DNA of 64,000 nucleotides. Source: Patescibacteria group bacterium (GTDB taxonomy: Bacteria; Patescibacteriota; Doudnabacteria; UBA920). Positions 5,539 through 25,417 of this stretch are shown here, piece after piece (positions within the stretch are counted from its first letter, which is position 1; each line of letters starts with the position of its first letter). The position numbers and the translations under genes are program-made. A model generated the notes under the pieces. The model saw nothing but the letters and a program-made list of their open reading frames with translations. It did no database searches and had not been told where the DNA came from. The stretch lies in contig JAMDAY010000030.1 in assembly GCA_023484515.1 (NCBI GenBank), positions 1,320-65,319 of the forward strand, given 5' to 3'.

Positions 5539-5596
5539 TGGTTCTACGTCAAAATATAATACCTATTCCAGTTTTGCCATTTTTCATAGCAGAAAA

Positions 5597-6493: not shown

Positions 6494-6574
6494 ACAAATT
6501 ATAAGCCGAAAGTCCGTAATTACGTTTATGGATTTTTCGTTTATGGTTTTACGGATTTTAGGGACAAAGCGAAT

Positions 6575-6722: not shown

Positions 6723-6979
6723 GGGTAACACCCTGGCCAAGAAATTGGCCTTGCTGGAATTTTTATCTCCTACGGGAATAAAAAGAGAGCACTATAAACC
6801 CCAGCTTTGCTCCTTCTTGAGTAAGCCTTTTTGGGCTGAAAGGGAAAATATGGGCCGTTACCCCAAAAGCGTAAGGATTATCTTTCGGGTTTGGGTAAAG
6901 TAAAATAGGTCCTTTCGTGGGATGGGTATTTTCTACGTCGTCTTTATGGGCCGGGAAGATACCCATCTTGCTATATTAT

Positions 6980-8807: not shown

Positions 8808-9353
8808 TTACTGCAAGAGTATTTCCGCAGTATTGACTTGGCTGTTGCAGTTGACGAGTAGGTGGATCGGTAGGTTTTTTTGGTTCAGCGCAACCAAGAC
8901 GTAATTGTAAGCGGCCACCGAATACGAATGTCCGGCAACAGTAATTGTTTGTGCTGCGTTGGAACGGTTATCCAGCATGATTGTGACAAGGTTAGCAATA
9001 GCCATTTGGCTCGGAATAGCCTGACAGCTTGAGTTGAATTGTATGCGGGAACTTGCGTACTTAACTACCGTGTCGCCATAACTGAGGGGCTTGGGCGGGG
9101 CAGGTTTTGGTTTGCGGAATGGAATAAACTTGCTAGCCGGAGTAGATGTATTAATCGTATCCGCAGTAGAGGTTGCGGCTTGGGTGGGCGCAGGGATCTG
9201 GTCTTGTACGGGAACGATTGCTGTGATTTTCACTATTGGGGTTTTTTGGGTAGCCAGACGCTTAGGCCTTTGCCTTTCGTAGGTTATTGAACTAATAATA
9301 ATCATAATGACAGCCACAGTCGCCCAAATTATTGCCTTCGTGTTTTTTGTCAT
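8808..9353 (-). CDS. hypothetical membrane-anchored protein (last gene of T4SS-like operon)
   Basis: An N-terminal TM helix (AIIWATVAVIMIIISSITY) is followed by a Pro/Thr-rich linker and a C-terminal domain. The gene is co-directional and contiguous with the upstream T4SS-like genes. Confidence 0.5.
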   Translation of the reverse strand: MTKNTKAIIWATVAVIMIIISSITYERQRPKRLATQKTPIVKITAIVPVQDQIPAPTQAATSTADTINTSTPASKFIPFRKPKPAPPKPLSYGDTVVKYASSRIQFNSSCQAIPSQMAIANLVTIMLDNRSNAAQTITVAGHSYSVAAYNYVLVALNQKNLPIHLLVNCNSQVNTAEILLQ

Positions 9354-9369
9354 AAGTTCAATAAAATAT

Positions 9370-10128
9370 TTACTTTTGCCAATCGCTTAAGCTGGTTTGG
9401 GTAAAAGCATAAGCCGGGTCTATGGGCTGGCTGCTTCGCCACAAGGCAAAGTGCAAGTGTTTGCCCGTAGCCCAGCCGGTGCTGCCTTGCAGGCCAATGA
9501 CTTGTCCTGCTGTGACTTTGTCGCCAACTGCCAGCGGCGGCTCGGTTGCCAAGTGGCAATATTGGCTTGAGAGTGAGTCCGCATGGACAATGATAACTTC
9601 ATAGCCGCAGCCATATTGCACGTCAGCGGCTTCTTTTACTTGGTACCAACAAATGCCGTAGTCGTTATCGTCACAAAATTTCCAGCGTCTTGTTGTGTTT
9701 TCTAAAATATTGCTGTTTACCGCTGCTACTGTTCCGTCGGCAAAAGCCCGGACTTCAGTTTGCCTGGGCTCGTAGTCAGCCATGTCCCAAGCAACATGCA
9801 ACCGCCCGACTTTTGCCGAGGAATCTAGAATTACGCCTTGCGTTAATGACCCCAAGGTCGGGAAAGCATACGGGTGCTTAAAGTCATACCAGGTCTCGCC
9901 GTAAATGGTTTTGTAACTAAAGCTTTGAAATTCGGCAAACTGCGCTAAATTGGGGTTTACCGTGCCGTCTGCAACTTTGCCGTTGCCCTGCAAGACCGCA
10001 ATAATAGTTGCCAAAACCAGATACAAGATAAAGGCGGCGCTCAAAGTTAATAGTGCCAGCCACAGCAAAAATCGCTTAATTCTATTCCTGTTGGCATAAA
10101 GGGTGTAGGCGGCCTGAGCTGGGTTCAT
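9370..10128 (-). CDS. M23/LytM family metallopeptidase (cell-wall hydrolase) with N-terminal TM anchor
   Basis: The C-terminus (GDKVTAGQVIGLQGSTGWATGKHLHFALW) matches the M23 peptidase signature. An N-terminal TM helix is present. Confidence 0.8.
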   Translation of the reverse strand: MNPAQAAYTLYANRNRIKRFLLWLALLTLSAAFILYLVLATIIAVLQGNGKVADGTVNPNLAQFAEFQSFSYKTIYGETWYDFKHPYAFPTLGSLTQGVILDSSAKVGRLHVAWDMADYEPRQTEVRAFADGTVAAVNSNILENTTRRWKFCDDNDYGICWYQVKEAADVQYGCGYEVIIVHADSLSSQYCHLATEPPLAVGDKVTAGQVIGLQGSTGWATGKHLHFALWRSSQPIDPAYAFTQTSLSDWQK

Positions 10129-10142
10129 AAGGCAATAGATAA

Positions 10143-12542
10143 TTAGCGCGGCGGCTTAGTGGTACAAATTAGGTCTTCCTCCTGGCTGCTTTTTATGGAG
10201 AGAGGTATCTTGGAATCATTGATAATGAGCAGGCCTTTGCCAATTTCCAAGCGTTCCAAATAAGCGCGCTCGGGTTTGTTAATATGAACTTTTTCGTTGA
10301 GCTTATCAAAAGAGTCACTGACTTTGTGCTTCATGATCAAGGTCAGGGAAGACTGGTCAAATAAGTCTGAGGTGCGCGCAAACCCGCTGTTGTAATAATG
10401 GTTAATGGATTGGACAATGGTCGTGACCCCCGAGTTGTATTTCCTGCCCCGCAACGCCAAGGAAGCCAGCTTTTCCACAATCAGGCTGGATTGGAACAGT
10501 TGGCTGGCTTCGTCCACAATCAAGCTTTTAAACCGGGCTTTGTTTTTGGGATGGTTAATGTAACTCCAATAACTTTCTAAAATCACGGCCACCACAAAGT
10601 CTCGCTTGTCCACGTACTTTAAGGCAAAAACAATTAAGTCATCGCTGGCAAAATCAATATTTTGCTGCTTGTTAAACAGGTAGTACTGTGGATGCCGCGG
10701 TTCGGTGTAAGACCTTAGGACCGTAAGCAAGTTTTCGATTGTTCGGTTTTTTACCAGCCGGTCAATCTCCCTGATAAAGTCCTTGAGTACCGGTTGGTGG
10801 TTATTTTGGAGGCACTGCTCATACACAGCACCGATAGCTTTTTCCAACTGCGTCATGTCAGTTACGCTGATTTTTTCGTTCTGGTAGAGTTTCTGGAAAA
10901 GCTGCCTGACAAACTCGATTTTTTGCGCCTTGTACTCCGGGCCTGGAATGTGGAAAGGGTTAATGTAATAAATGGATCGATCGGAAAGCTCTATGTATTT
11001 GCCTTTGAGATAACTGGTGACCATTTCAAATTCGTTCTCCACGTCCAGGACAAATGACTGGTAGCCGATCATGCGGCTGCGGATGAGGTCTAGCTTGATA
11101 AAATAGGATTTGCCCGCGCCGGTGGAAGCGATAATTGAGCGGTTGTAGCTTTCCAGCTCTTTAATGTCTATGGTAACCAAGGAGCGGTTGATTTCGTCTA
11201 CGCCGTAAAGGATGCCAGTATTAGAAGAAATTTGTGGGGTAATGAAGGGAAAAGTAAAAGCCGCGACTGAGGTGTCAATGTCCCTGTGGTTTTTGGTGTC
11301 AGTATTGCTTGCGCCCGCAATGAACGTGCCTTTAAGGCCTTCCAGCTGCTCGTAGTGGTAAATCCTGGACTGCATCATTTTGCGGCTTAAGACCCGCTCC
11401 ATGTTCATGTGCACCATGTTTAAGGCCTGTAAGGTACTGGAACGGAACGTAACCTCGATTTTTAAGTCAATGGGCTTGATCTCTGACTTTAAGTATTGCC
11501 TTTCAATCCGTTCCGTGCTTTCCAGCACCAAGTTGTCAGCGATGTTTTTTGGCTTGTGCGCTTGGGTCTCGTCAAAAATTTTGGATTCAATGCGGTGGCG
11601 CTTTTCGGTAATTTTCATCACGGTCTCTTTGGGGTCTTTGCTGGTAAAGGTAAACATAAGGTCTGAGGCGTAAGGGAACATGATGATTTCCTTAAACCAG
11701 TCAATATAGGCATAAGAACCGAGTTCACTAATGAATTCCGATCGCAGGAGGTTTTTGCCGTTAATACTTAACAAATCAATGTTTTCTTCTTCAATAAAAT
11801 CCGGGCTGATTTTGTTAATGATGGAAAACGGCAGGCCTTGCTCTAAAGCCTTTTTGCGAAAGTCCTCAATGTGCCCGTAAAACTGCCGGTTATGGAGGAA
11901 TTTCTCTTCATCCAGGTAAGCCATTATCACCCGGACAAGCTCTTCGGTTTCCATAATTTTGACTTTTAAATTTATAGCCTGGAGCTGCGACTTAAAAGTG
12001 GTGAGGATGGCAATCATGCTTTGCCTGGCTTCTTGGAATATTTCCTGTTCGGTAATCCGCCGCCTTTTTTTGCCATCCTTTTCTTCCCGGCTGACAATGT
12101 CTTTGGACAACGTGTATTTCAGCTCGCTGAATTCCAACAACAGGAAGAATTTTTTGGTGATAATCTCGTAGTCTTTGCTGATGTCCCGGATAAAGTCGGC
12201 GTATTTTTCAAACAGGTCATAGGTGCCCAGGCCGCGGATGCTGTAGGCGTGCTCCAGTTGGCCGATATAGTCATCGGCGTTGGTCTTGCGGGTTTGCACT
12301 AAGACCCGCAGCGGGTACTTTACGTCAATTTCCCTGAGGACCTGCTCAAAGCCTGTAATGGCTCGCTTCTTTTCCGCTTCATCCATGAGGCCAAAGTTGG
12401 CCGGAAAAACTTCCAGGCACATGCGGTATGAGCCGTTCTTCATAATTAGGCAGCCGCCCTTGATGTCCTTGAACTGCCAAAAATTAGCCAGGGTCTGGAA
12501 TTTAGGCTTGGTTTTGAAAAAGAGCTTATTGATAAATGACAT
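10143..12542 (-). CDS. virB4: VirB4/TrbE/CagE-family type IV secretion ATPase
   Basis: A 799-aa protein with Walker A (STGAGKSYFIKLDL) and Walker B-like (SLIVDEASQLF) motifs. Its N-terminal domain resembles the 58204-58917 ORF, and the protein is paralogous to the 59034-60878 ATPase. Confidence 0.8.
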   Translation of the reverse strand: MSFINKLFFKTKPKFQTLANFWQFKDIKGGCLIMKNGSYRMCLEVFPANFGLMDEAEKKRAITGFEQVLREIDVKYPLRVLVQTRKTNADDYIGQLEHAYSIRGLGTYDLFEKYADFIRDISKDYEIITKKFFLLLEFSELKYTLSKDIVSREEKDGKKRRRITEQEIFQEARQSMIAILTTFKSQLQAINLKVKIMETEELVRVIMAYLDEEKFLHNRQFYGHIEDFRKKALEQGLPFSIINKISPDFIEEENIDLLSINGKNLLRSEFISELGSYAYIDWFKEIIMFPYASDLMFTFTSKDPKETVMKITEKRHRIESKIFDETQAHKPKNIADNLVLESTERIERQYLKSEIKPIDLKIEVTFRSSTLQALNMVHMNMERVLSRKMMQSRIYHYEQLEGLKGTFIAGASNTDTKNHRDIDTSVAAFTFPFITPQISSNTGILYGVDEINRSLVTIDIKELESYNRSIIASTGAGKSYFIKLDLIRSRMIGYQSFVLDVENEFEMVTSYLKGKYIELSDRSIYYINPFHIPGPEYKAQKIEFVRQLFQKLYQNEKISVTDMTQLEKAIGAVYEQCLQNNHQPVLKDFIREIDRLVKNRTIENLLTVLRSYTEPRHPQYYLFNKQQNIDFASDDLIVFALKYVDKRDFVVAVILESYWSYINHPKNKARFKSLIVDEASQLFQSSLIVEKLASLALRGRKYNSGVTTIVQSINHYYNSGFARTSDLFDQSSLTLIMKHKVSDSFDKLNEKVHINKPERAYLERLEIGKGLLIINDSKIPLSIKSSQEEDLICTTKPPR

Positions 12543-12984
12543 GGGAGAGGTAGTTGCCTATGAAAGCCAAAAGGAGGAGGCCTAAGGCCAAGGCAATAAA
12601 AATAATAATAAAAGTTTTCATATGGTTTTCTTCCTGGTAAACGAGTTGTTTGGCTTTAAAGCTGGCCGTGCCGCTTGCGGCATGGTGGTGGTAGATTAAG
12701 GCTTTAGGCTGGTTTTTGTAGTAGAAGAAAATAAAGAGCAGGTGACGATAAAAATTTCTGCCATGAATTTCGGCAATGCCGCAAAGCGATAAAGTGGCTA
12801 AAGCAAACATGCCCAGGCCGGTTGGCAGTTGTTTGTCCACTAGGCTAAATACTCCAAGGCCGACAAACAGCGTGGCAATAAATACCAGCACAATTTGTCT
12901 AAGGCCCAATCCCCAAAACAAGGTAACTTTGTAGCCTTCGATGGATTCAGGGATGTCGATTTTAAATGATTTATCTTCGGGCAT
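12526..12984 (-). CDS. small membrane protein, VirB3/PrgI-like candidate
   Basis: A 152-aa protein with two hydrophobic helices. It sits immediately upstream of VirB4 and overlaps it, the typical VirB3 position. Confidence 0.45.
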   Translation of the reverse strand: MPEDKSFKIDIPESIEGYKVTLFWGLGLRQIVLVFIATLFVGLGVFSLVDKQLPTGLGMFALATLSLCGIAEIHGRNFYRHLLFIFFYYKNQPKALIYHHHAASGTASFKAKQLVYQEENHMKTFIIIFIALALGLLLLAFIGNYLSHVIYQ

Positions 12985-13001
12985 AGGGGTTTTGGTTTAG
13001 G

Positions 13002-14312
13002 TTAGCTTTTTAATCTCTTTAACCGGTAATAGAGTCCGGCTCCGGACTGCGCGCCTTTCCTGATGACCGAACGGAAGCCTGCCACTTCAGAGGCATTGGC
13101 AATCTGCTGCAGCAAGTTGTTGCTATCCGCGACAATGGCCATACCAACAAGCATCAAGATTAAATTACCCAAAGAGAAGCCGCCGGAGCTTAAAAACACA
13201 AAAACTATGAGCAGGATCAGCAGGTCAAACATCAGTCCAAAGCTGGTCACAAAAAACTTGTGCCAGAAAATCATAGCCATATTCTTGGTCTCGTTAAAAA
13301 ACAACATGGGCGTGAAAATGGGAGACAAAAGGATCATGATCAGCAGCAGGAAATACCGTTTGGCGTTCCTAAACACCACAAAGCCAAACAGGACAACATA
13401 AACCAGCACAAAGATTGTCAGGCCAATTAAGGCCAGGCCAAAGCTGCCGGAAGAATTCCAGAGGCCGTCGGCAATCAAGGCTTTTAAGGCAATGGTTAAA
13501 CCATTGGCTAGCTGGGTATTAAATAAAAAGGTGGCAAAGGCTTGGGCGGTTAGGATTAAGGCTTCGGCCAAGTACCTGGCCAAAAACACCCCGGCAAACC
13601 CCAGCAATATCTTACCCACGTCTCCCACAAAATCGCTGGAGAAGTCCTGGTCCAAGGAAAAAATTATGGCTTTGAAATAGTGGGTCACCACCAGCAAGTA
13701 GACCCAGGCCAAACCGATAATCTCACTGAGCTTAAGCAGGCTGTTAAAATTGGCAATCTGCTGCAGTTTGCCTGGGGACAGGTTCGGGTCGCTATTAAAC
13801 AGTTCAGCTGGCAGGCTGAATAAAAAATTAAAATTAAATTTTTCCACGACTTTTCCCACCACGGTTCCCAGTCCCCGGACTACTTTTTCAATGATAATGC
13901 CTAAGACGTCATTGATAGTCTTTTTGACGCAGTCAATGGTGTCAACCACAATTAAAATACACTTGGGGTCGGTGATGTTGCTTTGGATGTCACTAATTTC
14001 ACTGCCGAGCAGATTGGTGTTATTAATGTCATTCGTGGAGGGCAGTTTGCCCGTAATGTCCTCTTTAACTCCGGCGTAGAAATTGCTCATGTAGGCTTCG
14101 TGAAAGGCAAAGACAAAGGCTCCGGAAAGGAACAACATAATAAAGCCCACAATTACGGTTTGGACGACCAGGTTGGAGCGAACGACGTCATCGTGCTTGC
14201 CAGTGTTTCTTAAGGCTCCGGCAATGGCAATGACAAAAACACCAACCACCATGCTGATGGCGATTATGGCTGGGACATAATGCGCTAAAACAGCTTTAAT
14301 CAGGTTGTCCAT
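13002..14312 (-). CDS. polytopic membrane protein, VirB6/TrbL-like candidate
   Basis: A 436-aa protein with about 8 predicted TM helices. It lies in a T4SS-like operon between the VirB8-like and VirB3-like genes. Confidence 0.5.
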   Translation of the reverse strand: MDNLIKAVLAHYVPAIIAISMVVGVFVIAIAGALRNTGKHDDVVRSNLVVQTVIVGFIMLFLSGAFVFAFHEAYMSNFYAGVKEDITGKLPSTNDINNTNLLGSEISDIQSNITDPKCILIVVDTIDCVKKTINDVLGIIIEKVVRGLGTVVGKVVEKFNFNFLFSLPAELFNSDPNLSPGKLQQIANFNSLLKLSEIIGLAWVYLLVVTHYFKAIIFSLDQDFSSDFVGDVGKILLGFAGVFLARYLAEALILTAQAFATFLFNTQLANGLTIALKALIADGLWNSSGSFGLALIGLTIFVLVYVVLFGFVVFRNAKRYFLLLIMILLSPIFTPMLFFNETKNMAMIFWHKFFVTSFGLMFDLLILLIVFVFLSSGGFSLGNLILMLVGMAIVADSNNLLQQIANASEVAGFRSVIRKGAQSGAGLYYRLKRLKS

Positions 14313-15240
14313 AATTTATTTGGGAGAGGTTGTTAATTTGTTTACAGCCTTCGTAGCCATATTTAAAATATATTTTTGGAGATTTGGCAAAACCTACGCT
14401 GATCCGGCTAAGCGTGAGCTGGCTGTCCACGCCGTTTTTTTCCAGGATTTCGTTGTCAGCCAAAAATATCCGGTTAGATTGCGAGTCCCGGAGCACCAGA
14501 AAAGAAAACAAGCCTGCGGGCTGGGTCTGGGCATTTCGGGATTTGAGTAAGTCCTTGTCTTCCAGGTTCGGGTCGCGGACGTCCAATATTTTATCCCCGA
14601 TTTGCGCTTTCCAATCCGGGCTCGTTTTTATGAATTCAGCCAGTTTAGCCATGGAAGAATAACGCCAGTCATAAAGCTCAATGCCGGTGGCTTTTTCAGT
14701 CTTGTCATCAAGGTCGCAGACCAAGCCGCCAAGTTTTACCAGAGTTGGCTGGTCGCTTAAGAAGCCCTTATCCTTGGCGTACTGGTAGCGGGCACGGGCG
14801 TGATTTTCCAAATAATTGAAGCTTTCCGGCACGACTGTAGACAAGTCACCGCCGGTTAAAGGCGTCAGGCCGCTGTTAATGAACAGAAGATCTTCGAACT
14901 TCCTGCGGACCAACTCCTGGTTCTTTCCTTCCAGCCACTGCTGCAGTTCGCCCGTAAAAGATTCTACAGTTTGGGTCTGGATTTTTTCCTTGTACGCCTG
15001 GCTTTGCCAATAGGTCTCGTCGGCAATTACCGTTTCCCGGGTCGGAGAAGGTTTTGGGTTGCTTACTTTGGGTTGGGGGGAAATGCGCCAGATTTGCAGG
15101 TAGATTGCCACTGCAAACAACAGGCTAATGTACAAAACCGCCCGCAGGTTAAAGTTGGGAACAAAAGTTTTTACCAAACCATCCAGCCTGTAAAGCCAGC
15201 TATTTCTTTTGGGTTGTTTGGTTTCTTGCTCATCGCTCAT
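14296..15240 (-). CDS. bitopic membrane protein, VirB8-like position (hypothetical)
   Basis: A single N-terminal TM helix (LRAVLYISLLFAVAIYLQIW) is followed by a roughly 250-aa periplasmic/extracellular domain. The assignment rests on operon position only. Confidence 0.4.
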   Translation of the reverse strand: MSDEQETKQPKRNSWLYRLDGLVKTFVPNFNLRAVLYISLLFAVAIYLQIWRISPQPKVSNPKPSPTRETVIADETYWQSQAYKEKIQTQTVESFTGELQQWLEGKNQELVRRKFEDLLFINSGLTPLTGGDLSTVVPESFNYLENHARARYQYAKDKGFLSDQPTLVKLGGLVCDLDDKTEKATGIELYDWRYSSMAKLAEFIKTSPDWKAQIGDKILDVRDPNLEDKDLLKSRNAQTQPAGLFSFLVLRDSQSNRIFLADNEILEKNGVDSQLTLSRISVGFAKSPKIYFKYGYEGCKQINNLSQINYGQPD

Positions 15241-15270
15241 AGGCTAATGTGGTTAATAATTATCTTGGCT

Positions 15271-15642
15271 TTAAGCATTAGACTTTATGCCAACCAGGCC
15301 TAAGACATACAGGATGAGGCCAATGATAAAGATGGCAGCAAAAGTTATGCCCACGCCCACGACCGTGGATCTCAGTCCGGCCTTGGCTTCTTGGGACTTG
15401 ATGGGATCAGAGCCTGAAGACTGCAGCTTAATGCCGTACCAGGCAACCATGATGACCGCGTAGAGGACGGCAATGCCGAAGATGACCCCGATACCGATAT
15501 TGGCAAAATCCCGAACCGGTTTCATTTTATCTGACTCCCAGACTGACATGTCTGGTTTGGGCAGTTCCTGGGCAAGCGCGATTGAGGCGGTTAAAAATAG
15601 GGCGGAGACACTGGCCCCAAGTGAAGCAATAAATTTTTTCAT
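15271..15642 (-). CDS. T4SS pilin-like protein (VirB2/TrbC-like): signal peptide plus two hydrophobic segments
   Basis: A 123-aa protein with a signal peptide (MKKFIASLGASVSALFLTASIALAQE) and two TM segments (IGIGVIFGIAVLYAVIMVAWY and VVGVGITFAAIFIIGLILYVLGLVGI). It lies in the T4SS-like operon. Confidence 0.55.
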   Translation of the reverse strand: MKKFIASLGASVSALFLTASIALAQELPKPDMSVWESDKMKPVRDFANIGIGVIFGIAVLYAVIMVAWYGIKLQSSGSDPIKSQEAKAGLRSTVVGVGITFAAIFIIGLILYVLGLVGIKSNA

Positions 15643-15727
15643 TGTTGTTACGTTAGTGTATTAATAATTGAGATACCCTAAAGATATATTCGCTCTCAGC
15701 TATCATTGGAATAGATGTAATTGTTCA

Positions 15728-16615
15728 TCATAAAAAATTAAATAACTTAATTCTTTGGGTAATTTCAGCTTTGAGCAGCCCGTCTTTACTTAACCTAACT
15801 GTGCTTTCTGTTGCATAAATTGGTTCTAAAAATTGCTTGGCTCCGGCAATTAAGTCCAAGTGGGTAGTGACAATGTTGAGTTTTAGAAGGCCAGGGCGGT
15901 TCATAAAAATATTGAGCCAAAAGGAGCGCTCCATCCCTTGGGTTTGGAACACTAACCGCAGAGTGTATTGTTCAGAGTTTTGCAAAGCAAGAAAGTCCCA
16001 GTACCTTTGGACCTTATTAAGCAAGGATTCGTTGGATTTTCGGGTGCGCTCAAATTCCGTGTAAACTTTGTACTCCGCCTGGCTGGTCTTGTAAACTACG
16101 GTGTAATCGGGGGTTAAGGCTTCCACACGTTTGTCGCTTATATAGTCTTGTGTTTGCGAACTGTCTTCGCCTTTAAAGCTAAAACTTAAATTTGCAGACT
16201 TGTTCAAGCTTTCCAAACTGGCCAGCTCCACGATTTGGGCTTCATGCTTGAACAATCCCCAGGACAGCAAAGTCTTGGCTGTCGGGTAATTTTTCAGGCG
16301 CTGCCACTCATACTGGCCACACTCAGTCAAGACTTTTAGTCCTTGTTTGGAAAGCATATAAAACAGCGAGAAGCCGCCGCCGGAAAAAACCTTAAAGCTT
16401 TCCAAAAGTTTAGCCTGCCACATTCGGCGGAGTTTGGTATACATGTACCGGCTCCGCTCTTTTTGGCTGAGGAACCTGGTAATATGGCAGCTGGAGGCCA
16501 GCCTAAACTCCAAGACTAAAGCCAAAATCTCCAACGCGGACTGGTTTATTTCCACGTTATACGGGCTTACGTTAGCCCTGGGGGTGAGTTTTACGTCAAG
16601 GGTGTTTAAATACAT
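15728..16615 (-). CDS. hypothetical protein (possible winged-helix / relaxation-accessory protein)
   Basis: A 295-aa soluble protein lying between the coupling-ATPase and pilin genes. No decisive motif was seen. Confidence 0.45.
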   Translation of the reverse strand: MYLNTLDVKLTPRANVSPYNVEINQSALEILALVLEFRLASSCHITRFLSQKERSRYMYTKLRRMWQAKLLESFKVFSGGGFSLFYMLSKQGLKVLTECGQYEWQRLKNYPTAKTLLSWGLFKHEAQIVELASLESLNKSANLSFSFKGEDSSQTQDYISDKRVEALTPDYTVVYKTSQAEYKVYTEFERTRKSNESLLNKVQRYWDFLALQNSEQYTLRLVFQTQGMERSFWLNIFMNRPGLLKLNIVTTHLDLIAGAKQFLEPIYATESTVRLSKDGLLKAEITQRIKLFNFL

Positions 16616-16632
16616 ATTTTAGTTTTGCTAAA

Positions 16633-19320
16633 TTAAAAATTTACTGCAGCCGGTGCCCGTTCTTTGTCTGGCTCAAAGGTAGTGTGCCTGCCCATGAGCT
16701 CCCGGAAAATTTGCTCCCTTTTAGCCGAGTAATAAATGCCGTTGATATTGTCCCGTTTTTGTTTTATGACTTCCAAAGGCGTGCCATAGCTTTCCATGGT
16801 TTCTTTAATGAAATATTCTTCCGTGTCCCTTAAAATGTCTTTGGGATGGGGAGTTTTTTGGATATTGATGGACATGGCGTCTTGCGGCACGCCTTGGACT
16901 AAAGTTTTGAGGTAAGCCGTGCCGGTCGGCAGGTTAATAATGTCTTCCACGGTAATCCTGCCGCCTAATATCTTTTCGGCGATTTCACTGTCTCCGACTG
17001 ACTGGGTGCGCATGAAGATTTTGGTGGCAATGTTGGACTCAATGGATTTTTGGATGCGCTCGTCCAGTTGGCCCATGAATTGGTTGGAAATGACCAAAGC
17101 GGTGTTAAACGCCCGAACTTCGGAAAACAGGGTTTCAAAGATGTCGCTGGCCACCCTTTGGAACTCGTCAATAACGAACACACACGGTTTGCGGTCTTCG
17201 CTATTCAGCCTGGCTTGGCCGAAAATTGCTTCGGCAATATGGGCGGAGAGGTATACCGAGTAGTACTTTTTCAGCTGCTCGCTGGATGAGCCAAAGTTGG
17301 CAATAAAGATCTTGCCTTGCTTGATCATGTCTTCAAACGTAATCTTGGTTTCCAGACGGTCGGCAATGTTCATGAATTCCTGGTAATCCAAAAATTTGCC
17401 GATCTTGTTGTTGGTCGTGGCCAAGTACCTGGCAAGGTCGTTATTGGAACGCTTTAAGATTGAATCCGTCCAAAAGCTTTGCAACCTTAAGGGCAGGTAC
17501 TTTAAGAGGTTCTTTATTTGGTTGGGTTCGTGCAATAGCTGGTCCAGACCCGAGAGGGACTGGGCAGGCAGCACGTAAGCCGTGGTAAACAGCTGCCTTA
17601 AGATGTTTTCCAGTTCCGGGCCCCAGGAGTTAGCTGAATCAATCTGCACGAACCGCTTCATAATGGAGATTAAAAAGCCTAAACGCTCTTCGTCGCTTTT
17701 GTCCCCGGAAAACTGTGAAAAGAAGGGAAAGCTTAAAGGCTTGTCTTGCTGTTTGGAGGGATTAAAGTAAACTACATCCGCTTTCCGTTCTTCGGGGATC
17801 ATGGTTAAAAGGTCTGTGGCAAAGTCGTTTTTGGGGTCAATAACCAGGCAGGCGGCTTTGTCCTTGCCTGTTTTTTGCAGGACGTGGCTTAGGATGGTTT
17901 TTAAAGTTTCGGATTTGCCGCTGCCAGTGCCGCCAAGAATATAGACATGCTTTTTCATGTCGTCCCAGGTCGGGATGCCAATTTTGGTGTCTTCCTGCAT
18001 GCGGAAGTTAGACTTGCCCAGCTCCACGTAGAAGCTGTCGTCGTATTCGCGCATTTGCTGGCTGGCGGGTTTCTTTTTGAACTTAACAGTCTTAACCGAA
18101 GACACGGTTTGGTCATTGGTATCAGGCAGGTGCCAGAGGGAAAATAGCTCAATGTCAGAAATCACTTGCCCGAAATTCTGGTAGCCTGAAAAAGGCCATA
18201 ACCATAATTTTCGGGTTCTTAAAACCGGCTTGGTGTCTATAATTTGCCGCAGTTGCCCCGAGGTTGCCAAATCCTCCACCTGCCTGGTAAACAGTCTTTT
18301 ATGCTTGAGCATGTTCATGTTCTTTTGGTTGACCTCTGTCAGCACCCCCTGGATGTTGGCCAGTTTTATTTCCGCGTCTTCCGGGGTTTCGGAAACCGCC
18401 CAGTAAGAAATAATGGTTTGAAACAGGGAGGCTTTCATTTTTTCTTCCATGGCAATCTTCAGCGAACTGGCCAAGTCCGAAACAGGCTCCTTTTTGTAGG
18501 AAGGGGTTTGTTTGGCCGCTTGGGCCACTTCTTGCTGCGCCCGTTCCTGGTCTTCAATCAAGTAGTGGATGATTTGGTTGAAGTAATGGGAAGAAGGGGA
18601 GATGAGGATGTTGTAGGCCATAAACCGGCCCTTGGCCAGCGCTTCCATGGTGGAGATAACGGAATCCACGGGGTCGGAGGACACGTCCTTGAAGGTTTTT
18701 ACCCGGTGGTAAAACTTGCCCTCAATGGTGGTTTGGCCGTAACTCAAATAACTTTTTTGATACTTGGCCACCTCTGCCAAAACCGCGTCTTTGTCTAGCA
18801 TGGTGATTTCGGCATTGGGATAGGCATTAAAAATAGCCTTTTCCATCCGTTGGAAAAAGGCTATGGGGATTTGGAGGCGAAAGGATATGTAAGGGTATTG
18901 GGCCCAGACCTGCATCGTGAAAAATACTTGTTTGGCCAGGGCAACTTTCCAATGGCGGTAGAGCTTCTGGAAGAAGTAAAAATACCTGGAAAATTGGTGC
19001 GGCCCTTCAATCGGATCTTGGTAGACCGAATGGAAGGCCTTGAGGATTTTTTGCTGGATCTGGAAGGCTGTGGTTTGGGAGTCTTTGGGAATGGTAATTT
19101 CAAAATACAGCGTTTTGGGGAATTCTTTGTCTAAATCCTTGTTTTTTATTTTAATTTTTTCAAAAGCGTGGAAAATATCAAGGCGGTAAAGGGAGAAAAG
19201 CTGGTAGAGGGAAAATAGAAAAATGGTGCCACAAAGGGTCAATATTCCAGTCGTCCATTCCCAAGTGGGGATTTTCCTGACTGTCTCTAACCACAGCTGG
19301 TAGCCAATGTTATTAGGCAT
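16633..19320 (-). CDS. virD4: type IV coupling protein-like ATPase (VirD4/TraG/TraD family)
   Basis: An 895-aa protein with an N-terminal TM region, Walker A (YILGGTGSGKSETL) and Walker B (PCVFVIDEFQRVASD) motifs. It is the first gene of the minus-strand T4SS-like operon. Confidence 0.65.
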   Translation of the reverse strand: MPNNIGYQLWLETVRKIPTWEWTTGILTLCGTIFLFSLYQLFSLYRLDIFHAFEKIKIKNKDLDKEFPKTLYFEITIPKDSQTTAFQIQQKILKAFHSVYQDPIEGPHQFSRYFYFFQKLYRHWKVALAKQVFFTMQVWAQYPYISFRLQIPIAFFQRMEKAIFNAYPNAEITMLDKDAVLAEVAKYQKSYLSYGQTTIEGKFYHRVKTFKDVSSDPVDSVISTMEALAKGRFMAYNILISPSSHYFNQIIHYLIEDQERAQQEVAQAAKQTPSYKKEPVSDLASSLKIAMEEKMKASLFQTIISYWAVSETPEDAEIKLANIQGVLTEVNQKNMNMLKHKRLFTRQVEDLATSGQLRQIIDTKPVLRTRKLWLWPFSGYQNFGQVISDIELFSLWHLPDTNDQTVSSVKTVKFKKKPASQQMREYDDSFYVELGKSNFRMQEDTKIGIPTWDDMKKHVYILGGTGSGKSETLKTILSHVLQKTGKDKAACLVIDPKNDFATDLLTMIPEERKADVVYFNPSKQQDKPLSFPFFSQFSGDKSDEERLGFLISIMKRFVQIDSANSWGPELENILRQLFTTAYVLPAQSLSGLDQLLHEPNQIKNLLKYLPLRLQSFWTDSILKRSNNDLARYLATTNNKIGKFLDYQEFMNIADRLETKITFEDMIKQGKIFIANFGSSSEQLKKYYSVYLSAHIAEAIFGQARLNSEDRKPCVFVIDEFQRVASDIFETLFSEVRAFNTALVISNQFMGQLDERIQKSIESNIATKIFMRTQSVGDSEIAEKILGGRITVEDIINLPTGTAYLKTLVQGVPQDAMSINIQKTPHPKDILRDTEEYFIKETMESYGTPLEVIKQKRDNINGIYYSAKREQIFRELMGRHTTFEPDKERAPAAVNF

Positions 19321-19823
19321 AGTAAGCAGAAGTTAAATATTCATGCGTACAGTTACTAGCCCTCCCCGGCGTATTTCTGTCCCGCCGCTTCGCGGCGGGC
19401 AACTCTTCCCCCCATCTTTCCTCTCCAGTCTTTGGGTTTGTTTTTAGGTTTTGGTTTTAGTTAGATATTGGAATTTAGGTATTTGGAATTAAGACAAGAT
19501 AATAGGTTAAGGTAAGAATAGATAGTATTGATGTTTAGTAGAGTTAGTATAGATACTAGTCGTTCAGTTGATTCTCTGGTGAGATAGTAGCCACTGGTAA
19601 GGGATTATTAGAACATCAATAGACACAGGTGATTTAGAAGATTTGCTAGTACAATGGGGTTGCACTATTGGTTGTACTAGCCAGCCGCTGGTTCCATAGC
19701 TCCAGCTTAATAGAAAAATCCCTGATTAGCAAGGGGTAGTTTGCCAGCTTGTCAAGAAGACAAGGCTAGCAGGCCAAGGTCAGGGGTTTTGCATAAAGTA
19801 GGTTTTAGCAGCGTTCAGGATTT

Positions 19824-19950
19824 TCCACCAAGGGAAACTTTCAGGATTTTTAGAATTTTTTTTGGTCGCTTCGCTCCCATTGCAAACGGGGGGAAATGCA
19901 GTTTGAGCCAATATTTCTGCGTGCAAATCCCACGGCGGAAGAAAACGCAA
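19824..19950. repeat. left copy of a perfect 127-bp inverted repeat flanking the recombinase/Ubl cassette
   Basis: By base-by-base comparison, 19824-19950 equals the reverse complement of 24074-24200 over 127/127 positions. Confidence 0.95.
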
Positions 19951-20051
19951 GCGCTTGCCCCACCCTCCCGTGCGCGCGCTAACGCAGCTCCCTATATATT
20001 ATTAAGAGATTAAACAAAAATTTAAAATAATAGCCATAAATGATAGCTATT

Positions 20052-20387
20052 TTAATTTACCCAAACGATCTTATTATCTCTAATCCAAAAGTGACTACCA
20101 CAAGTTCCATATCCTCTCCATAAGGACGGCATTAGCGTTACTCCTTTATTGCTTCTTGTTAGTCTCCAAACTGGATAAATGCTTTTCATCAAATTTACTT
20201 CAATTTTATCGCCACAGCCACACGGACAGGAAAATACTAACCACTTTAAGTGACCCTCATTGACTACTATATAAAAATAGGAACCAAGTCTATCTGGTAG
20301 TTCGTTCAACGATTTAATTTCCCTTGCCTGACCTAACTCACTCTTGCGTTGCCACTTTTTTACTAACTCTTTAAGCCAATTAAACAT
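20052..20387 (-). CDS. small Cys-rich protein (CPCGCG ... CGSHF; possible Zn ribbon), last gene of Ubl-E2-E1 operon
   Basis: A 111-aa protein that overlaps the JAB-E1 gene by 8 bp, indicating translational coupling. Four clustered cysteines are present. Confidence 0.5.
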   Translation of the reverse strand: MFNWLKELVKKWQRKSELGQAREIKSLNELPDRLGSYFYIVVNEGHLKWLVFSCPCGCGDKIEVNLMKSIYPVWRLTRSNKGVTLMPSLWRGYGTCGSHFWIRDNKIVWVN

Positions 20388-21762
20388 TTTGGCTCCAAAC
20401 GGTATCCAGGAAAGGGGTAGTGTCGCCCCTGCCCCAGTTATTTTTATTAGCGCAAAAACAATCGGCCTGTGGCTTTTGCGTGGTTGTTATAACTTTAGCT
20501 CTATCAAAAAAGTAAAGATATTCATTAGTCTCCCTTGCTCCCATAAAGCCGGTAAGTCTTTGTATCATTTCCGACACGGCCGCCGCGGCTACTGAAGAAG
20601 TGAAAGTAATTACAGCCGGTGCAGGCTCAGCTAATTCCGGCGCGTAACCCTCTTGTCTCCTAACAGCTGCTTCTGTCGGGTTTGTCGCTTGAAGTGATTC
20701 CGCTAACATACTTTGCGAGTTAAGTCTCTCACGACAAAGTAAACAAGCGTTTGAGGGGAAAAGGGTTGTTACTCTTCCTAAAATAGACTTTATGTTACCA
20801 TCTTGGGAATCAATTAATACCGCCATATCAATTACCGGAATGTAATAGTAGATAGAGAGTGTATTTAGCAAAGAACGTCCCCACTCATCATCTGTGCAAG
20901 CAAAAACCAAATCACAATTTCTTAATTCTTTAATTGCGACTTGGTTAGTAATGTTAGTTTCGCAAGTAATTACCTTGGTTCCAAGACCCTTGCTATGAGC
21001 TGACCGTTCCGCAATTTTAGTCTTATGGTGCCCTTCGTCCGATAAGAGAGAACCATAAACTCTATTTACGTTTGATTTTTCAAAAGCTTGCCCGTCAAAT
21101 AGTCTTAAGTCGCCAACACCCAACCTCATTAACTGCTCTGCAACTGCGGAACCCGTCCCACCAAGACCCACGATGCCAATCCTTAATTTTTGTAATAACT
21201 TTTGAATATCCTTGCCAAAAGCCCTGATTTGTCGGTCAAAAGAAATCTCGTCTAGGAGTTGCCCCTCGTTGTTATAAAAGAATTTAAACCTATTTCCAAT
21301 AACTCTAATAACTTCCATTGGGTAGCTTTGTCCATCTGCGAGCCAAACTCTACCAATTGGTTTTGTTGGAGAGGAAAAAACTAGGCTGCCGTGTAAATTA
21401 GAACGAGTAATTCTATTATAAGTAGTGCGGAATAATTTCTGCTCTTCCTTGTCATCTTGAGTAGAAAAATTAGGGGTAGTTTCTGGGTGCGAATGGACAA
21501 AAACAAAACTACGCTTTGTATTGTTAGCCTTTTTCAAAGCCCGCATAAACGAAGTTGACGGGATTGACAGACTGGTCGCCGAAGCACTTTCCAGTTCATT
21601 CGGCATTACTGGAATAACCTCTTGCACCAGTAACCTTGAATCCTCACTACCACTAGAAGGTCTGCATAAAAGATAAGCAGCCCGCTCCGTGGATGCATCT
21701 TTAAAGAGATGCTCAATGAGCTGACTGTATTCTGGTTCTAAAAAGGTTAAAGAATAACGCAT
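20380..21762 (-). CDS. JAB/JAMM deubiquitinase-like domain fused to ThiF/MoeB-type E1-like adenylyltransferase
   Basis: The N-terminus (FVFVHSHPETTPNFSTQD) matches the JAMM signature HxHx7Sx2D exactly. The middle (RIGIVGLGGTGSAVAEQLMRLGVGDLRLFDGQAFEKSNVNRV) is a ThiF Rossmann/GxGxxG fold. The C-terminus has CLLCR and CFCAN CxxC pairs, as in the E1 zinc motif. Confidence 0.8.
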   Translation of the reverse strand: MRYSLTFLEPEYSQLIEHLFKDASTERAAYLLCRPSSGSEDSRLLVQEVIPVMPNELESASATSLSIPSTSFMRALKKANNTKRSFVFVHSHPETTPNFSTQDDKEEQKLFRTTYNRITRSNLHGSLVFSSPTKPIGRVWLADGQSYPMEVIRVIGNRFKFFYNNEGQLLDEISFDRQIRAFGKDIQKLLQKLRIGIVGLGGTGSAVAEQLMRLGVGDLRLFDGQAFEKSNVNRVYGSLLSDEGHHKTKIAERSAHSKGLGTKVITCETNITNQVAIKELRNCDLVFACTDDEWGRSLLNTLSIYYYIPVIDMAVLIDSQDGNIKSILGRVTTLFPSNACLLCRERLNSQSMLAESLQATNPTEAAVRRQEGYAPELAEPAPAVITFTSSVAAAAVSEMIQRLTGFMGARETNEYLYFFDRAKVITTTQKPQADCFCANKNNWGRGDTTPFLDTVWSQNV

Positions 21763-21765
21763 TGT

Positions 21766-22167
21766 TTACTTGCTCAAATCATTTTTAATAGAGCTGATAT
21801 AAGTTCTCAAATTATCTTTTCCAGCTCTCCATTGAGATTGGGAAAGATGACGAGACCAGCGTTGCCAAGGTATCTCGTCGTAAGTTTCGTGAACATCTGC
21901 TTTGTCGGGAAGATTACCGTTTGCCAGTTTTACATCAGGATAGGTATAAAACATATCTGGGTTAGCATTGGGGTAGCCAGCTGGAACTCTGATTAGTAAC
22001 TTAACGCTCGCTAGGTTGTATTTTTGTGGCGGTAATAAAAATTCCTCAATGGTAAGATGAACCATACCGTTCACGGATATGGTTTTATATTTATACTGCT
22101 TTTCATCCAAAAATTCTATATCAAATTCCGGAAGGAGTGGTTGATTTGTCCCGTCATTTTCAGGCAT
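21766..22167 (-). CDS. E2/UBC-fold-like protein (UEV-like: YPN motif present but no cysteine in whole ORF)
   Basis: A 133-aa protein lying between the Ubl and E1 genes, as in bacterial Ubl-E2-E1-JAB operons. It carries VPAGYPNANPD, an HPN-like motif, but the ORF encodes no Cys. Confidence 0.5.
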   Translation of the reverse strand: MPENDGTNQPLLPEFDIEFLDEKQYKYKTISVNGMVHLTIEEFLLPPQKYNLASVKLLIRVPAGYPNANPDMFYTYPDVKLANGNLPDKADVHETYDEIPWQRWSRHLSQSQWRAGKDNLRTYISSIKNDLSK

Positions 22168-22417
22168 TGATGGAGCCTGGGTTTAAAGTTTTGGGACCGC
22201 TGTGAAATTGGGTACCATTTTTAAAAGTATACTCTTTGCTGTCGTTCGGAATGGGTTCGTCATCACCAGGACCAGGGATTTCCATTAATAGATTATAATC
22301 CGCTCCAATACCTGCCAGAGTATAAAGAGCTACGCCTGTAATCGGATTCTTAATTTTATATTCCTTCTTATCGATATGGATTACAACCTCATCATGTTGA
22401 TTGTCACCATGGGCCAT
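22160..22417 (-). CDS. small ubiquitin-like (beta-grasp / multiubiquitin-family-like) protein
   Basis: An 85-aa first gene of the operon, overlapping the E2-like gene. Its sequence (VVIHIDKKEYKIKNPITGVALYTLAGIGADYNLLMEIPGPGDDEPIPND) fits a beta-grasp fold. It has no C-terminal GG; it ends NPGSINA. Confidence 0.5.
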   Translation of the reverse strand: MAHGDNQHDEVVIHIDKKEYKIKNPITGVALYTLAGIGADYNLLMEIPGPGDDEPIPNDSKEYTFKNGTQFHSGPKTLNPGSINA

Positions 22418-22663
22418 ACATTCCTTTCCGTTCCCGAATATTAAAGTTTTTTCGGAAACATTGCCTTTATTTTAACACAAAATTGCCTTAATTACCAGAA
22501 GAATATATCTACCCCAGTCATTTTACTCCAAGGTTATTTTTATGACATCCAAAATATGATATAATACCTATGCGACAAACTAACCAACGAGTTTTTTAAT
22601 GGCCGTCTTTGGAAATAAATCCAACTTGTTGGGTTTGTCGCACCAAGGGCGGTCATTATTAAT

Positions 22664-24391
22664 TTGACTAGTATGGCTATTAAATATTTTTTATATGCGC
22701 GTAAATCCACGGAAGACGACGATCATCAAATAATGAGTATTGAAGCTCAGTTATTTGAATTGCGCGAATATGCCCGCAGGGAAAAACTAGAGATTATAGA
22801 AGAGTTAACTGAATCTAAAAGCGCTAAGAAGCCAGGCAGAATAAAATTTGGCGAATTGATGGATAAAATAGAAGAAAGTAACGGTGTTGGAATTCTCGCT
22901 TGGCACCCCGACAGGCTTGCCCGTAATTCCGTTGATGGCGGAAAAATAATTTATTTTGTAGATACCAAAAAGATTGTTTCCTTGCGCTTTCCCACTTTTT
23001 GGTTTGAACCAACACCGCAAGGTTTGTTTATGCTGCAAGTGGCGTTTGGTCAAAGCAAATACTATACAGATAATCTTGCCGAAAACATTAATCGGGGTTT
23101 TCGTCAAAAAATCAGGCGCGGCGAATGGCCGACAAAAGCCCCGTTCGGATACGTTAATAATTTTAAAACTCGTACTATCGAGCCTCATCCCTTTCAATCT
23201 AAAATAGTGGTCAGGGCTTTTGAGGAATTTGCCACGGGAAAATATACCTATGAAAGCCTGGCGGATTTTATGGCAGAGTTGGGAGTGGAAACCAAGAATC
23301 AAACGCCGCTTGGCAAAGCTTCTATTTGGAGAATGTTGACCAATCGGGCTTATTTAGGACTTACTAAGCATAAGGGCGAATATTTTGAGGGCAGCTTTCC
23401 GGCGATTCTTCTCCCCGCAACTTTTGATGCTGTCCAGGCGGTTCTAAAGCGAAAAGCTAGGCCGCGCAAAAGCAAGCAGGCTTTGGACTTTCCGCTGACT
23501 GGTCTTTTGACGTGTGGAGAATGCGGCTGTGCCATTACGGGTTGCAATGTAACTGGCAGGCACGGTCATAACTTTCGTTATTATCGTTGTACCAGAAAGA
23601 AAAATAAATGCTTGCAAGGCAGTTTGCAAGAGCGGCAGCTTGCGATTCAGCTCAAGAGCGAGCTTCAAAAAGTTGCCATTTGTGATAACTGGACAGACAA
23701 AATGCTCCAGCAGATTTCGGTTTGGGAGAAAGAAGAAACCAGTTCATCAAAAAGCCCTGTCCAAGACATAAAAAATAGTTTGGATAAAATTCAGGACAAG
23801 CTTAACCGGTTGGTTAGCGCTTACATTGACCAAGAAATTCCCAAAGAAATTTACTTGGTCAAAAAGGAAGAACTGCTCAAACAAAAGCTTGTCCTAAGCC
23901 AAGCTCTAAAGAATCTTGGACAGGAAGGTGGAGTGTGGATTAAACCCCTCCGGCAGTGGATTTTAGACGTAAAAGAAGCCACTTTCGTGGCTTCTTCGAG
24001 TGATCTATCTGAAGTTAAACAGACCGTTCAAAAGTTAGGATTAAACCCCCAACTTTTGGATAAGAATGTAAAATTGCGTTTTCTTCCGCCGTGGGATTTG
24101 CACGCAGAAATATTGGCTCAAACTGCATTTCCCCCCGTTTGCAATGGGAGCGAAGCGACCAAAAAAAATTCTAAAAATCCTGAAAGTTTCCCTTGGTGGA
24201 GATGGCGGGAGTTAAACCCGCGTCCAGAACGAATCAATTTTCCCATTGTTCACAAGATTAGCCAGTTCATAAGCCTTAATGACAAGAGCTGGCAAGATAT
24301 CATTAAGGTTGATTTACTAAAGCTTGAGCTGGTCAGCGCAAATCAAACCGACCGGCCGCAGCCTCTAATGAAGCCGCTAATTTATCTTTGA
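22664..24391 (+). CDS. large serine recombinase (resolvase/invertase N-domain + recombinase domain + Zn ribbon); ORF reads through the right inverted repeat
   Basis: The N-terminus (YARKSTEDDDHQIMSIEAQ) contains the catalytic Ser region of serine recombinases. The zinc ribbon is CGECGCAITGCNVTGRHGHNFRYYRC. The conserved domains end near aa 470, exactly where IR-R (24074) begins. The remaining 105 codons lie in or beyond the repeat. Confidence 0.8.
   Translation: MTSMAIKYFLYARKSTEDDDHQIMSIEAQLFELREYARREKLEIIEELTESKSAKKPGRIKFGELMDKIEESNGVGILAWHPDRLARNSVDGGKIIYFVDTKKIVSLRFPTFWFEPTPQGLFMLQVAFGQSKYYTDNLAENINRGFRQKIRRGEWPTKAPFGYVNNFKTRTIEPHPFQSKIVVRAFEEFATGKYTYESLADFMAELGVETKNQTPLGKASIWRMLTNRAYLGLTKHKGEYFEGSFPAILLPATFDAVQAVLKRKARPRKSKQALDFPLTGLLTCGECGCAITGCNVTGRHGHNFRYYRCTRKKNKCLQGSLQERQLAIQLKSELQKVAICDNWTDKMLQQISVWEKEETSSSKSPVQDIKNSLDKIQDKLNRLVSAYIDQEIPKEIYLVKKEELLKQKLVLSQALKNLGQEGGVWIKPLRQWILDVKEATFVASSSDLSEVKQTVQKLGLNPQLLDKNVKLRFLPPWDLHAEILAQTAFPPVCNGSEATKKNSKNPESFPWWRWRELNPRPERINFPIVHKISQFISLNDKSWQDIIKVDLLKLELVSANQTDRPQPLMKPLIYL
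24074..24200. repeat. right copy of the perfect 127-bp inverted repeat
   Basis: Reverse complement identical to 19824-19950. Confidence 0.95.
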
Positions 24392-25417
24392 GGCAAAAGA
24401 TAAGGCGGCGCCCTGGCTTAGAATTAAGCGAAGGCAGGCTGGAAAGCAAAGGCGTTAGCCAATGCAGTCTTTACCTTAGAAAATGCGTTAGCATTTATGA
24501 TGCCCAAAAGGATTTCCGAGGCTATTAGGCTTGCTCGTCTTGCATATGGCAAAATGTCAAAGTCCTGTCAAAATCCGTCATCCCCATCCGGATACCTATT
24601 TTAACATATTTTAAAATCACATTCAACCCCTTTTTTATTGTTAGGAAAGTATATATTTAAATATGAATTTAAATATATACTTTTTGGTTATTTAGCTGGG
24701 TTTAATTATTTTCTGTTGACATCGGGGCAGGGATGAGATATAAAATTTATATCAAACATTAAAGGAGAATGCATGAAAATCGTATGGAGGGTTGCTTCCA
24801 TAGTTTGTAAACGGATGCGGCCGTCGGGGGAGGAAAAGAAACGGCGGTGCGGGCGTATTATGCGGAATGCTGCATTGCAGCTGGCTGCGATCAGGCAAGA
24901 ACGCGAGGGCGGTTCCATGTCACTTGGGACGCTTAGGGTCCTGGAAATTATCTGGTGACAGTCCCAGACGGCAGCGTCTGGTGGAGTTATTGGGAGGTTA
25001 TATGAAGACAAGGCAGGACAGGGTTGCAATTTTGAAGCGGAAAGACGATGGGTGGCCGTTGCAAGATGTGGGTTTCCTGGTAAAACGCTTGGAAGTGCTG
25101 GTGTTGTTGGATCCTGAATTTCCCACAGCCCTGGTGCTTTTTGGCAAGTTCAACAAGGGAGCAGTCGCGACAGCGTTGAGAACCCTCAGGGTTGTCTGCG
25201 AATGCGAGGTTGCCAGCAGCCAGAATTTTCAGGAATGCGGCACGCCTTGCTTGCTTCCTGGGAGGACCAGGCAACGGTGATCAAACAAAAACGGCGGGCG
25301 CGAAGGCTTTGCGATCGCCGTTTCAATTTGTCCGGTTTTATGCCGTAGGGGATGGAAAGCCTGTATTATTAAACTTATTATGCCGTCATAAATTAAAAGC
25401 CCAGGAGGACAATATAG

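Follow-up and report, generated by a model that had tools for sequence, protein, structure and literature searches.

A putative integrative element at the tmRNA gene of a Patescibacteria-type genome carries its large serine recombinase gene between long inverted repeats

Introduction

Serine integrases are prized as genome-engineering tools, and the direction in which they act is normally set by a separate factor. Enzymes of the Hin/Gin/Pin type are small invertases of about 190 aa with a C-terminal helix-turn-helix, inverted sites of about 26 bp and an enhancer. In the yeast 2-micron plasmid, the FRT targets of Flp, a tyrosine recombinase, reside inside inverted repeats of 599 bp; the sites are identical and no integration is involved. 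Cluster G/P mycobacteriophages display integration-dependent immunity, in which attP lies inside the repressor gene and a tyrosine integrase is used. Here we analyzed a stretch of 64,000 nt from a Patescibacteria group bacterium (contig JAMDAY010000030.1 of assembly GCA_023484515.1), referred to as the window, in which a large serine recombinase (LSR) gene is located next to the transfer-messenger RNA (tmRNA) gene ssrA and is framed, together with an operon for a ubiquitin-like protein (Ubl) and its E2 and E1 enzymes, by long inverted repeats.

The locus resembles the 2-micron plasmid in that a recombinase gene resides in one of two unique segments, and in long, near-identical inverted repeats which each contain a target and far exceed the minimal length of a site; in contrast, the enzyme of the window is a serine integrase of the attP x attB type residing in a tRNA/tmRNA gene, and the circular form with two repeats is a predicted one. 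Islands at ssrA have been described in Dehalococcoides, where they are inserted in the T-loop and leave 20-bp direct ssrA repeats, and where inverted repeats were not reported (PMC3146451). The likeness to these islands with DsiB extends to a serine recombinase of about 540 aa at the island edge beside ssrA, to variable cargo and to tandem accretion, which we encountered at a related locus (PMC3146451). In the window, however, the crossover is located at the terminal CCACCA without a direct ssrA repeat, long inverted repeats with a spare inverted attP surround the integrase gene, and neither a second tmRNA 3' end nor a second small recombinase is present, which sets the locus apart from an island of that type. 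Segments governed by Hin/Gin/Pin enzymes and shufflons (PinQ: PMC12529663) similarly combine a serine recombinase with a segment bounded by inverted repeats, and here, too, inversion would swap the C-terminus of a protein. Yet the recombinase of the window is large (512 or more aa) and its arms measure 127 bp, so that it does not belong to the small serine invertases (Hin/Gin/Pin/Cin); moreover, it is the recombinase's own C-terminus that inversion would alter. As in the cluster G/P mycobacteriophages (mentioned in PMC9262239), attP is located in the 3' end of a gene and integration alters the C-terminus of the product, although in the phages this concerns a tyrosine integrase and a repressor gene, without an inverted spare copy.

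Results

A repeat search of the 64-kb window identified two arms of 127 nt that are 100% complementary and separated by 4123 nt (Table 1), as a first-pass annotation of this DNA had stated base for base; no further long perfect repeat was found beside this pair. That annotation had overlooked the tmRNA gene, the coding nature of the right arm, the attP-like site at the left arm and the larger conjugative element. The LSR ORF (open reading frame) contains the domains of a large serine recombinase (PF00239, 3.3e-21; PF07508, 1.3e-12; PF13408, 4e-08), and the nearest solved relative of its product is the SPbeta integrase (9dxh). Past position 24200, the ORF reads 64 codons of antisense tmRNA. The tmRNA gene is complete (Rfam model positions 1-374), and its last 7 nt, TCCACCA, are identical to the outer 7 nt of the right arm, so that the LSR 3' end is joined to a specific target through a short shared core. 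As judged from this junction, the right arm constitutes the P half of attP, joined through the core to the tmRNA gene in an attL/attR-type arrangement; attP of the element thus resides inside its LSR gene, at the 3' end. It follows from such a junction that the LSR ORF is devoid of its native last 14 codons and runs into antisense tmRNA instead.

The missing codons are found at the opposite end of the segment. An ORF on the minus strand (19780-19950) encodes the 42 residues of the right arm again and then continues outside the repeat as KILNAAKTYFMQNP, followed by a stop codon, and KILNAAKTYFMQNP corresponds to the conserved native C-terminus (last 14 codons) of the LSR family. On these grounds, the left arm together with about 45 nt outside it constitutes a second, intact and inverted attP-like copy (P-core-P'). 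The P' half-site of the window is kept in the three closest relatives (L005, L006 and L008), and no dyad symmetry between P and P' was evident by eye.

Table 1. Positions of the features in the window.
Feature	Position	Strand	Description
Conjugation module	8808..19320	-	T4 coupling protein, Replic_Relax relaxase, T4SS pilin, PrgI, VirB4/TraG-like ATPase, M23 peptidase
Non-coding block beside P'	19583..19720		Conserved in related loci L005 and L006
P' half-site	19780..19823	-	Extends the left arm in the LSR frame as KILNAAKTYFMQNP-stop
Left arm	19824..19950	-	Inverted copy of the LSR 3' end (P); core TCCACCA at 19824-19830
bubE	20052..20387	-	DUF6527 (1.3e-22), profile match
BubCD-like JAB peptidase-E1 fusion	20380..21762	-	Prok-JAB 1.3e-09, ThiF 6.6e-32
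BubB-like E2	21766..22167	-	Prok-E2_E 7.5e-33
BubA-like Ubl, 85 aa	22160..22417	-	Weak Multi_ubiq match, E=0.0056
bubA/LSR divergent intergenic region	22418..22663		Inside the repeat-bounded segment; presumed position of the promoters
LSR ORF	22664..24391	+	Resolvase, Recombinase and Zn ribbon domains
Right arm (P)	24074..24200	+	Last 42 element-encoded LSR codons (~471-512), up to the crossover core
Core TGGTGGA (minus strand TCCACCA)	24194..24200		Common to LSR 3' end and tmRNA 3' end; element/host junction
tmRNA gene (ssrA), integration target	24194..24585	-	ARAGORN; Rfam RF00023, 119.9 bits

The repeat is also reflected in independently assembled reads. Logan contigs (k=31) from two read sets are identical to the interior of the repeat: the contig from SRR10252151 corresponds to window positions 19921-24103 and ends exactly 30 nt (k-1) inside both arms, and that from SRR10267473 corresponds to 19921-22884 and ends 30 nt inside the left arm. 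Since the contigs break k-1 nucleotides into the arms, the inner junctions are true branch points in the reads. Among related loci, contigs very often start or stop at or within the arms (e.g. L010, L011, L016, L021, L044, L102 and L106-L108). In assemblies of Patescibacteria, contigs are thus frequently interrupted by the arms, and the layout accounts for the many contig ends at these loci in such tiny genomes.

To place the locus within its family, we surveyed 166 loci, 80 from GTDB genomes and 80 from metagenomes, the remainder being exact look-ups and the window itself. LSR homologues are very numerous and mostly derive from Patescibacteria. An inverted repeat with the LSR 3' end as its right arm was present at 108 of the 112 loci that have room on both sides (about 96%). 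Arm lengths at 115 loci ranged from 59 to 193 nt with a median of 131 nt; 51 of these arm pairs are perfect and 93 are at least 95% identical. The repeat encloses the LSR gene alone in 131 of 138 loci. Thus, the repeat is not peculiar to the Ubl operon and represents the standard frame of the LSR family. A search of related genomes for the cassette in other contexts, to which the first-pass annotation had pointed, found the frame at many tRNA genes as well as at the tmRNA gene, and the attP-like sites together with the tRNA/tmRNA junctions bear out its view of the arms as recombinase attachment-site DNA of a mobile element.

At 80 loci, a convergent tRNA or tmRNA gene shares a few nucleotides of its 3' end with the right arm, and the outer flank of the left arm encodes the native tail in frame; the other loci are mostly cut by contig ends. 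Overall, about 100 relatives display a junction of the kind seen in the window, at a tRNA or tmRNA gene. The integration targets comprise the genes for tRNA-Glu, Ser, Ala, Pro, Leu and Arg and the tmRNA. Accordingly, the homologues can be aligned as far as a conserved WW (or C-G) position, past which their C-termini fall into two classes, one derived from antisense tRNA or tmRNA (e.g. RCRELNPGP or DPTGNRTP) and one reading x-I/L-I/L-x-F-A-R-T-x-F-E-stop, with which the left flank of the window agrees. In 41 loci the left arm of the first pair is directly adjoined by the right arm of a second inverted pair of 150-435 nt, located further to the left. The resulting order of junctions in the relatives is host|core-P'...cargo...rc(P')-core-rc(P)-LSR-P-core|tRNA. 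Such elements therefore terminate in integrase junctions of the ordinary kind on either side and, in addition, harbour an intact inverted attP in their interior.

The closest relatives, L005, L006 and L008, have LSRs of 73-77% identity (tblastn) and are all located at the tmRNA gene, which in L008 is present though missed by ARAGORN. At the one junction that was measured (L029), the motif CGAAC is positioned 13 nt past the arm end in the tRNA antisense, compared to 19 nt in P'. The zinc-ribbon-domain motif is said, in work of Rutherford et al. from 2013, to be offset by roughly 5 bp between attP and attB half-sites. The difference in CGAAC spacing fits the offset expected between attP-type and attB-type half-sites.

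Evidence that the spare arm is a working att half-site comes from L065 (9774-11598). Two different tRNA-Leu genes (CAA and GAG) converge there on a segment containing the LSR gene only, and each arm of this segment is fused to a tRNA 3' end, at the same position in both cases. From its sequence, this locus looks like the product expected if the internal attP had recombined with a second attB, i.e. a natural product of cassette exchange or deletion. Locus L053 (900-14400) contains three tandem units of cargo and LSR beside tRNA-Ser, each with both repeat pairs, which are separated by identical 178-nt spacers that start with a copy of about 20 nt of the tRNA 3' end; this tandem looks like accretion as in the Dehalococcoides ssrA islands. 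Repeat-framed LSR genes were also observed beyond Patescibacteria, in L067 (Chitinophagaceae bacterium PMP191F, labelled as an isolate) and L078 (a Bacteroidetes metagenome-assembled genome). Of the five relatives recovered from IMG/VR, three had identities of 33-39%, and the other two, at 61%, were short N-terminal fragments. PLSDB and phage records contained no close LSR relatives (identity of 28% or less), and an exact search with 24 nt of the arm gave no match in JGI metagenome contigs.

The two arms of a locus evolve in concert. Within a locus, the arms have a median identity of 99.3%, compared to 80% to the most similar foreign arm, and the locus' own arms are closer to each other in 106 of 115 cases, which substantiates the homogenisation assumed in the first-pass annotation. 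The mismatches are distributed evenly along the arm. The arms would not become alike through cleavage and religation at the outer core; hence, homologous recombination or gene conversion between them must be frequent, and every crossover of this kind inverts the segment. Loci in the opposite state were found (L089, L021, L143, L090 and others), in which a tRNA gene abuts the arm upstream of the LSR gene or the LSR possesses the native tail. The latter applies to about 16 of 120 LSR cluster representatives, whose nearest tRNA-fused relatives are 67-94% identical, and within single clusters at 90% identity the same LSR occurs with two kinds of native tail and with several different tRNA tails. 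These sequences indicate that inversion, or integration either way round, happens at least over evolutionary time. As both orientations occur among LSRs that are more than 90% identical, the segment may be an invertible one; a phase-variable defence switch is not supported. With the native tail, the full-length LSR of the window would end in …FPWWKILNAAKTYFMQNP; neither the assembled LSR nor this hypothetical flipped form was present in a collection of 15 billion proteins, as determined by exact-sequence look-up.

The codons of the tail, anchored on the DNA motif, follow a coding-type pattern with two NTN hydrophobic codons and variable third positions in GCN and TTY. This periodicity is suggestive of a functional peptide, a reading confounded by the invariant CGAAC at its fixed spacing.

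Between the arms, the window contains the LSR gene and the divergent Ubl-E2-E1 operon, as described in the first-pass annotation, with the correction that the genes number five rather than four owing to an additional bubE (DUF6527). The operon possesses the gene set of a type I Bub operon, i.e. Ubl, a family-E E2, a JAB-E1 fusion and DUF6527/BubE, with the match of the Ubl being a weak one; PADLOC returned only generic E1 matches. Type I Bub operons (the 6E.1/DUF6527 family) have been reported in mobile elements at tRNA genes, and anti-phage activity of Bub operons has not yet been demonstrated (10.1101/2024.11.21.623953). The operon of the window shares the Ubl, the family-E E2, the JAB-E1 fusion and BubE with those described, and differs in that Ubl and E2 are separate genes and in the Patescibacteria-type host (10.1101/2024.11.21.623953). 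The G+C content of the Bub/LSR segment (20001-23000) is 0.375-0.41, compared to 0.43-0.48 in both flanks, which is consistent with recently acquired cargo. In the closest relatives, the space between left arm and LSR gene is occupied by nothing (L006), by a single ORF of 437 aa (L005) or by an ABC-3C conflict system (L008), which makes the Ubl operon interchangeable cargo. Among 148 ORFs from the repeat-bounded cargo segments of related loci were DNA methylases, restriction enzymes, parts of Panacea/AbiEii toxin-antitoxin systems, LexA-like regulators, ABC-3C components and metabolic genes; the segments represent small islets of accessory and defence genes.

To the left of P', the window contains a conjugation module of the Gram-positive type for a type IV secretion system (T4SS), with all genes on the minus strand, in a Patescibacteria-like genome. 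As judged from its adjacency and from L005, which has coupling-protein remnants and a diversity-generating retroelement (DGR; RVT_1 and bAvd) in the matching position, this module probably is a large cargo segment of the same tmRNA-integrated element, which would then be an integrative conjugative element at ssrA. Its distal end presumably is located to the left of position 1 of the window. A complete DGR (1099-7996) adjoins the T4SS module of the window, with the reverse transcriptase at 6917-7996, the template repeat at 6576-6722 and the variable repeat at 5261-5407. The latter is located in the 3' end of an ORF of 1426 aa, and 16 of 16 mismatches are at template adenines. A RadC gene is located at 8236-8718.

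The tmRNA was the sole match of Rfam on the whole window and on the left-flank region; the non-coding block beside P' (19583-19720), which gave none, could be an extended att region, an origin of transfer (oriT) or a promoter. A scan of promoters and terminators did not rise above shuffled sequences. Upstream of the coupling-protein gene lies an odd, G/T-rich stretch of low complexity (19436-19580). A Logan contig with the T4SS genes, recorded in two samples, terminates at 19435 at the edge of this stretch, which may differ between strains. To the right of the tmRNA gene follows ordinary chromosome with SmpB, ArgRS, IleRS, UvrD and KsgA, syntenic with L006. There, the gene for KsgA (rRNA adenine dimethylase, 41942-42871) is flanked by an imperfect (79%), A/T-rich inverted repeat of 136 nt (41802-41937 / 42858-42993), and a motif of the CTTTACGGAATACGGAT type is repeated at three intergenic sites (34717, 55086 and 55521).

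Discussion

Taken together, we consider it likely that the host tmRNA gene harbours, at its 3' end, an integrative and probably conjugative element whose integration module is framed by the repeat, that the arms of the repeat allow inversion or integration at either of two sites, and that the Bub operon is a passenger. The arms would let the LSR segment invert by homologous recombination or gene conversion, or possibly through the action of the LSR itself, and the element could integrate through either of its attP copies. Either route would toggle the LSR between a tRNA-fused, tail-less form that is convergent with the tmRNA gene and the full-length form. A flip in the window would return KILNAAKTYFMQNP to the LSR and turn its gene towards the coupling-protein operon, with the Bub operon then facing the tmRNA gene. 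Since the intergenic region between the Bub operon and the LSR gene travels with the segment, no on/off switching of the defence-like operon would be expected; the operon is regarded as a passenger that was inserted in the LSR segment, and the orientation is not predicted to affect its expression.

Several observations weigh against this interpretation. No direct copy of P', which would mark a second, distal element end, is located within the 64-kb window, and it is for this reason that we infer the link between the T4SS and LSR modules. The tRNA-fused orientation dominates, with about 80 clear loci compared to about 7; the two states are thus unequal, contrary to what free flipping would produce, and both orientations could arise solely at integration. 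In the tail, the Arg codon is always CGA and the CGAAC motif is at a fixed distance, and constraint on the DNA site may therefore partly explain the conservation of this region. AlphaFold2 modeling of a full-length homologue (P0009) returned the tail helix at a predicted local distance difference test score (pLDDT) below 50 and hence gave no structural support for a role of the tail. Finally, no recombination directionality factor was recognised in the window with tools that are too limited for the diversity of such factors.

The alternative that survives best, which we regard as unlikely, is an autonomous LSR transposon, with or without cargo, bounded by terminal inverted repeats (TIRs) that has a perfectly palindromic attP (P|rc(P)) when circular and was inserted between the tmRNA gene and a pre-existing element. 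An LSR-only segment with identical ends does occur beside many tRNA genes and beside differing P'/cargo modules within clusters at 90% identity, and in L065 the segment is found alone between two tRNA genes. The far flank in about 80 loci is, however, the conserved P' with an in-frame C-terminal tail at fixed motif spacing, and in 41 loci the second pair (P'...rc(P')) defines a larger element, with the core at its outer ends. In the window itself, inverted repeats are present, yet a target-site duplication is lacking and the left flank is the conserved P', which is not what would be expected of a TIR transposon or insertion sequence. Of the TIR-type cassette suggested in the first-pass annotation, membership in a mobile element is thus retained, and a free-standing cassette with target-site duplication is not.

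It appears very improbable that the locus is a phase-variable defence cassette, in which the LSR would flip the 4.1-kb segment and thereby switch the Ubl/Bub operon or the neighbouring T4SS operon. Such a cassette would account for inverted repeats around a recombinase and a defence-like operon, and for the two orientations of the LSR segment across related loci. But the repeat is generic to the LSR family, usually with no cargo inside, and at the corresponding position close relatives contain different cargo or lack it altogether. In addition, the Bub operon, for which anti-phage activity has yet to be shown (10.1101/2024.11.21.623953), is divergent from the LSR gene, and the intergenic region with its presumed promoter is inside the segment and would move along, so that the proposal of a phase-variable defence locus finds no support. 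An equally small probability is assigned to the possibility that the upstream copy acts in cis as an operator, i.e. as a spare attP bound by the LSR, or as antisense to the 3' end of the mRNA, with inversion being incidental. Binding of a serine recombinase to such a region has a precedent in Tn3 resolvase, which binds res, and in most loci a mere 2-190 nt separate the end of the left arm from the LSR start codon; this distance, however, amounts to 1.7-3 kb, with genes in between, in L005, L008 and the window, about 130 nt at 99% identity are more than an operator needs, and L065 shows the arm recombining. An assembly artefact, in which a collapsed or chimeric join was produced at k=127, the maximum k-mer length of SPAdes, can be dismissed as far as the existence of the repeat is concerned (the orientation of the assembled interior stands apart from this verdict), because the k=31 Logan unitigs of two runs stop exactly at the inner arm boundaries, because over 100 loci, assembled with MEGAHIT, SPAdes, IDBA-type and other programs, display the same architecture with arms of 59-193 nt that are in part imperfect, and because an arm length of 127 nt, found in only 2 of 115 related loci, is not the signature of an assembler.

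With regard to the integrative element as preferred here, it might tentatively be speculated that a frame of dual inverted attP copies is a general, hitherto undescribed design in Patescibacteria and some Bacteroidota, in which integration through the attP inside the LSR gene removes the conserved tail of the LSR and the spare attP, whose identity is maintained by recombination, restores the full-length enzyme by a flip or by re-integration. We came across no report of long inverted repeats that flank an integrase gene and provide a spare inverted attP in the literature that we searched, which is an absence of evidence only; the architecture is apparently both widespread and undescribed. If this design holds true, the element itself would govern the activity or direction of its integrase, with no need for a separate directionality factor, and integrase and cargo modules could be reshuffled at tRNA genes in a manner resembling cassette exchange. 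An attP inside the integrase gene, a spare inverted attP that is kept identical over about 130 bp or more, and generic tRNA/tmRNA 3' ends as targets suggest that these integrases are controlled or re-used in a different way. For the Patescibacteria, the layout represents a common vehicle for small cargo, such as restriction-modification, toxin-antitoxin, ABC-3C and Bub systems and, in the window, the T4SS module.

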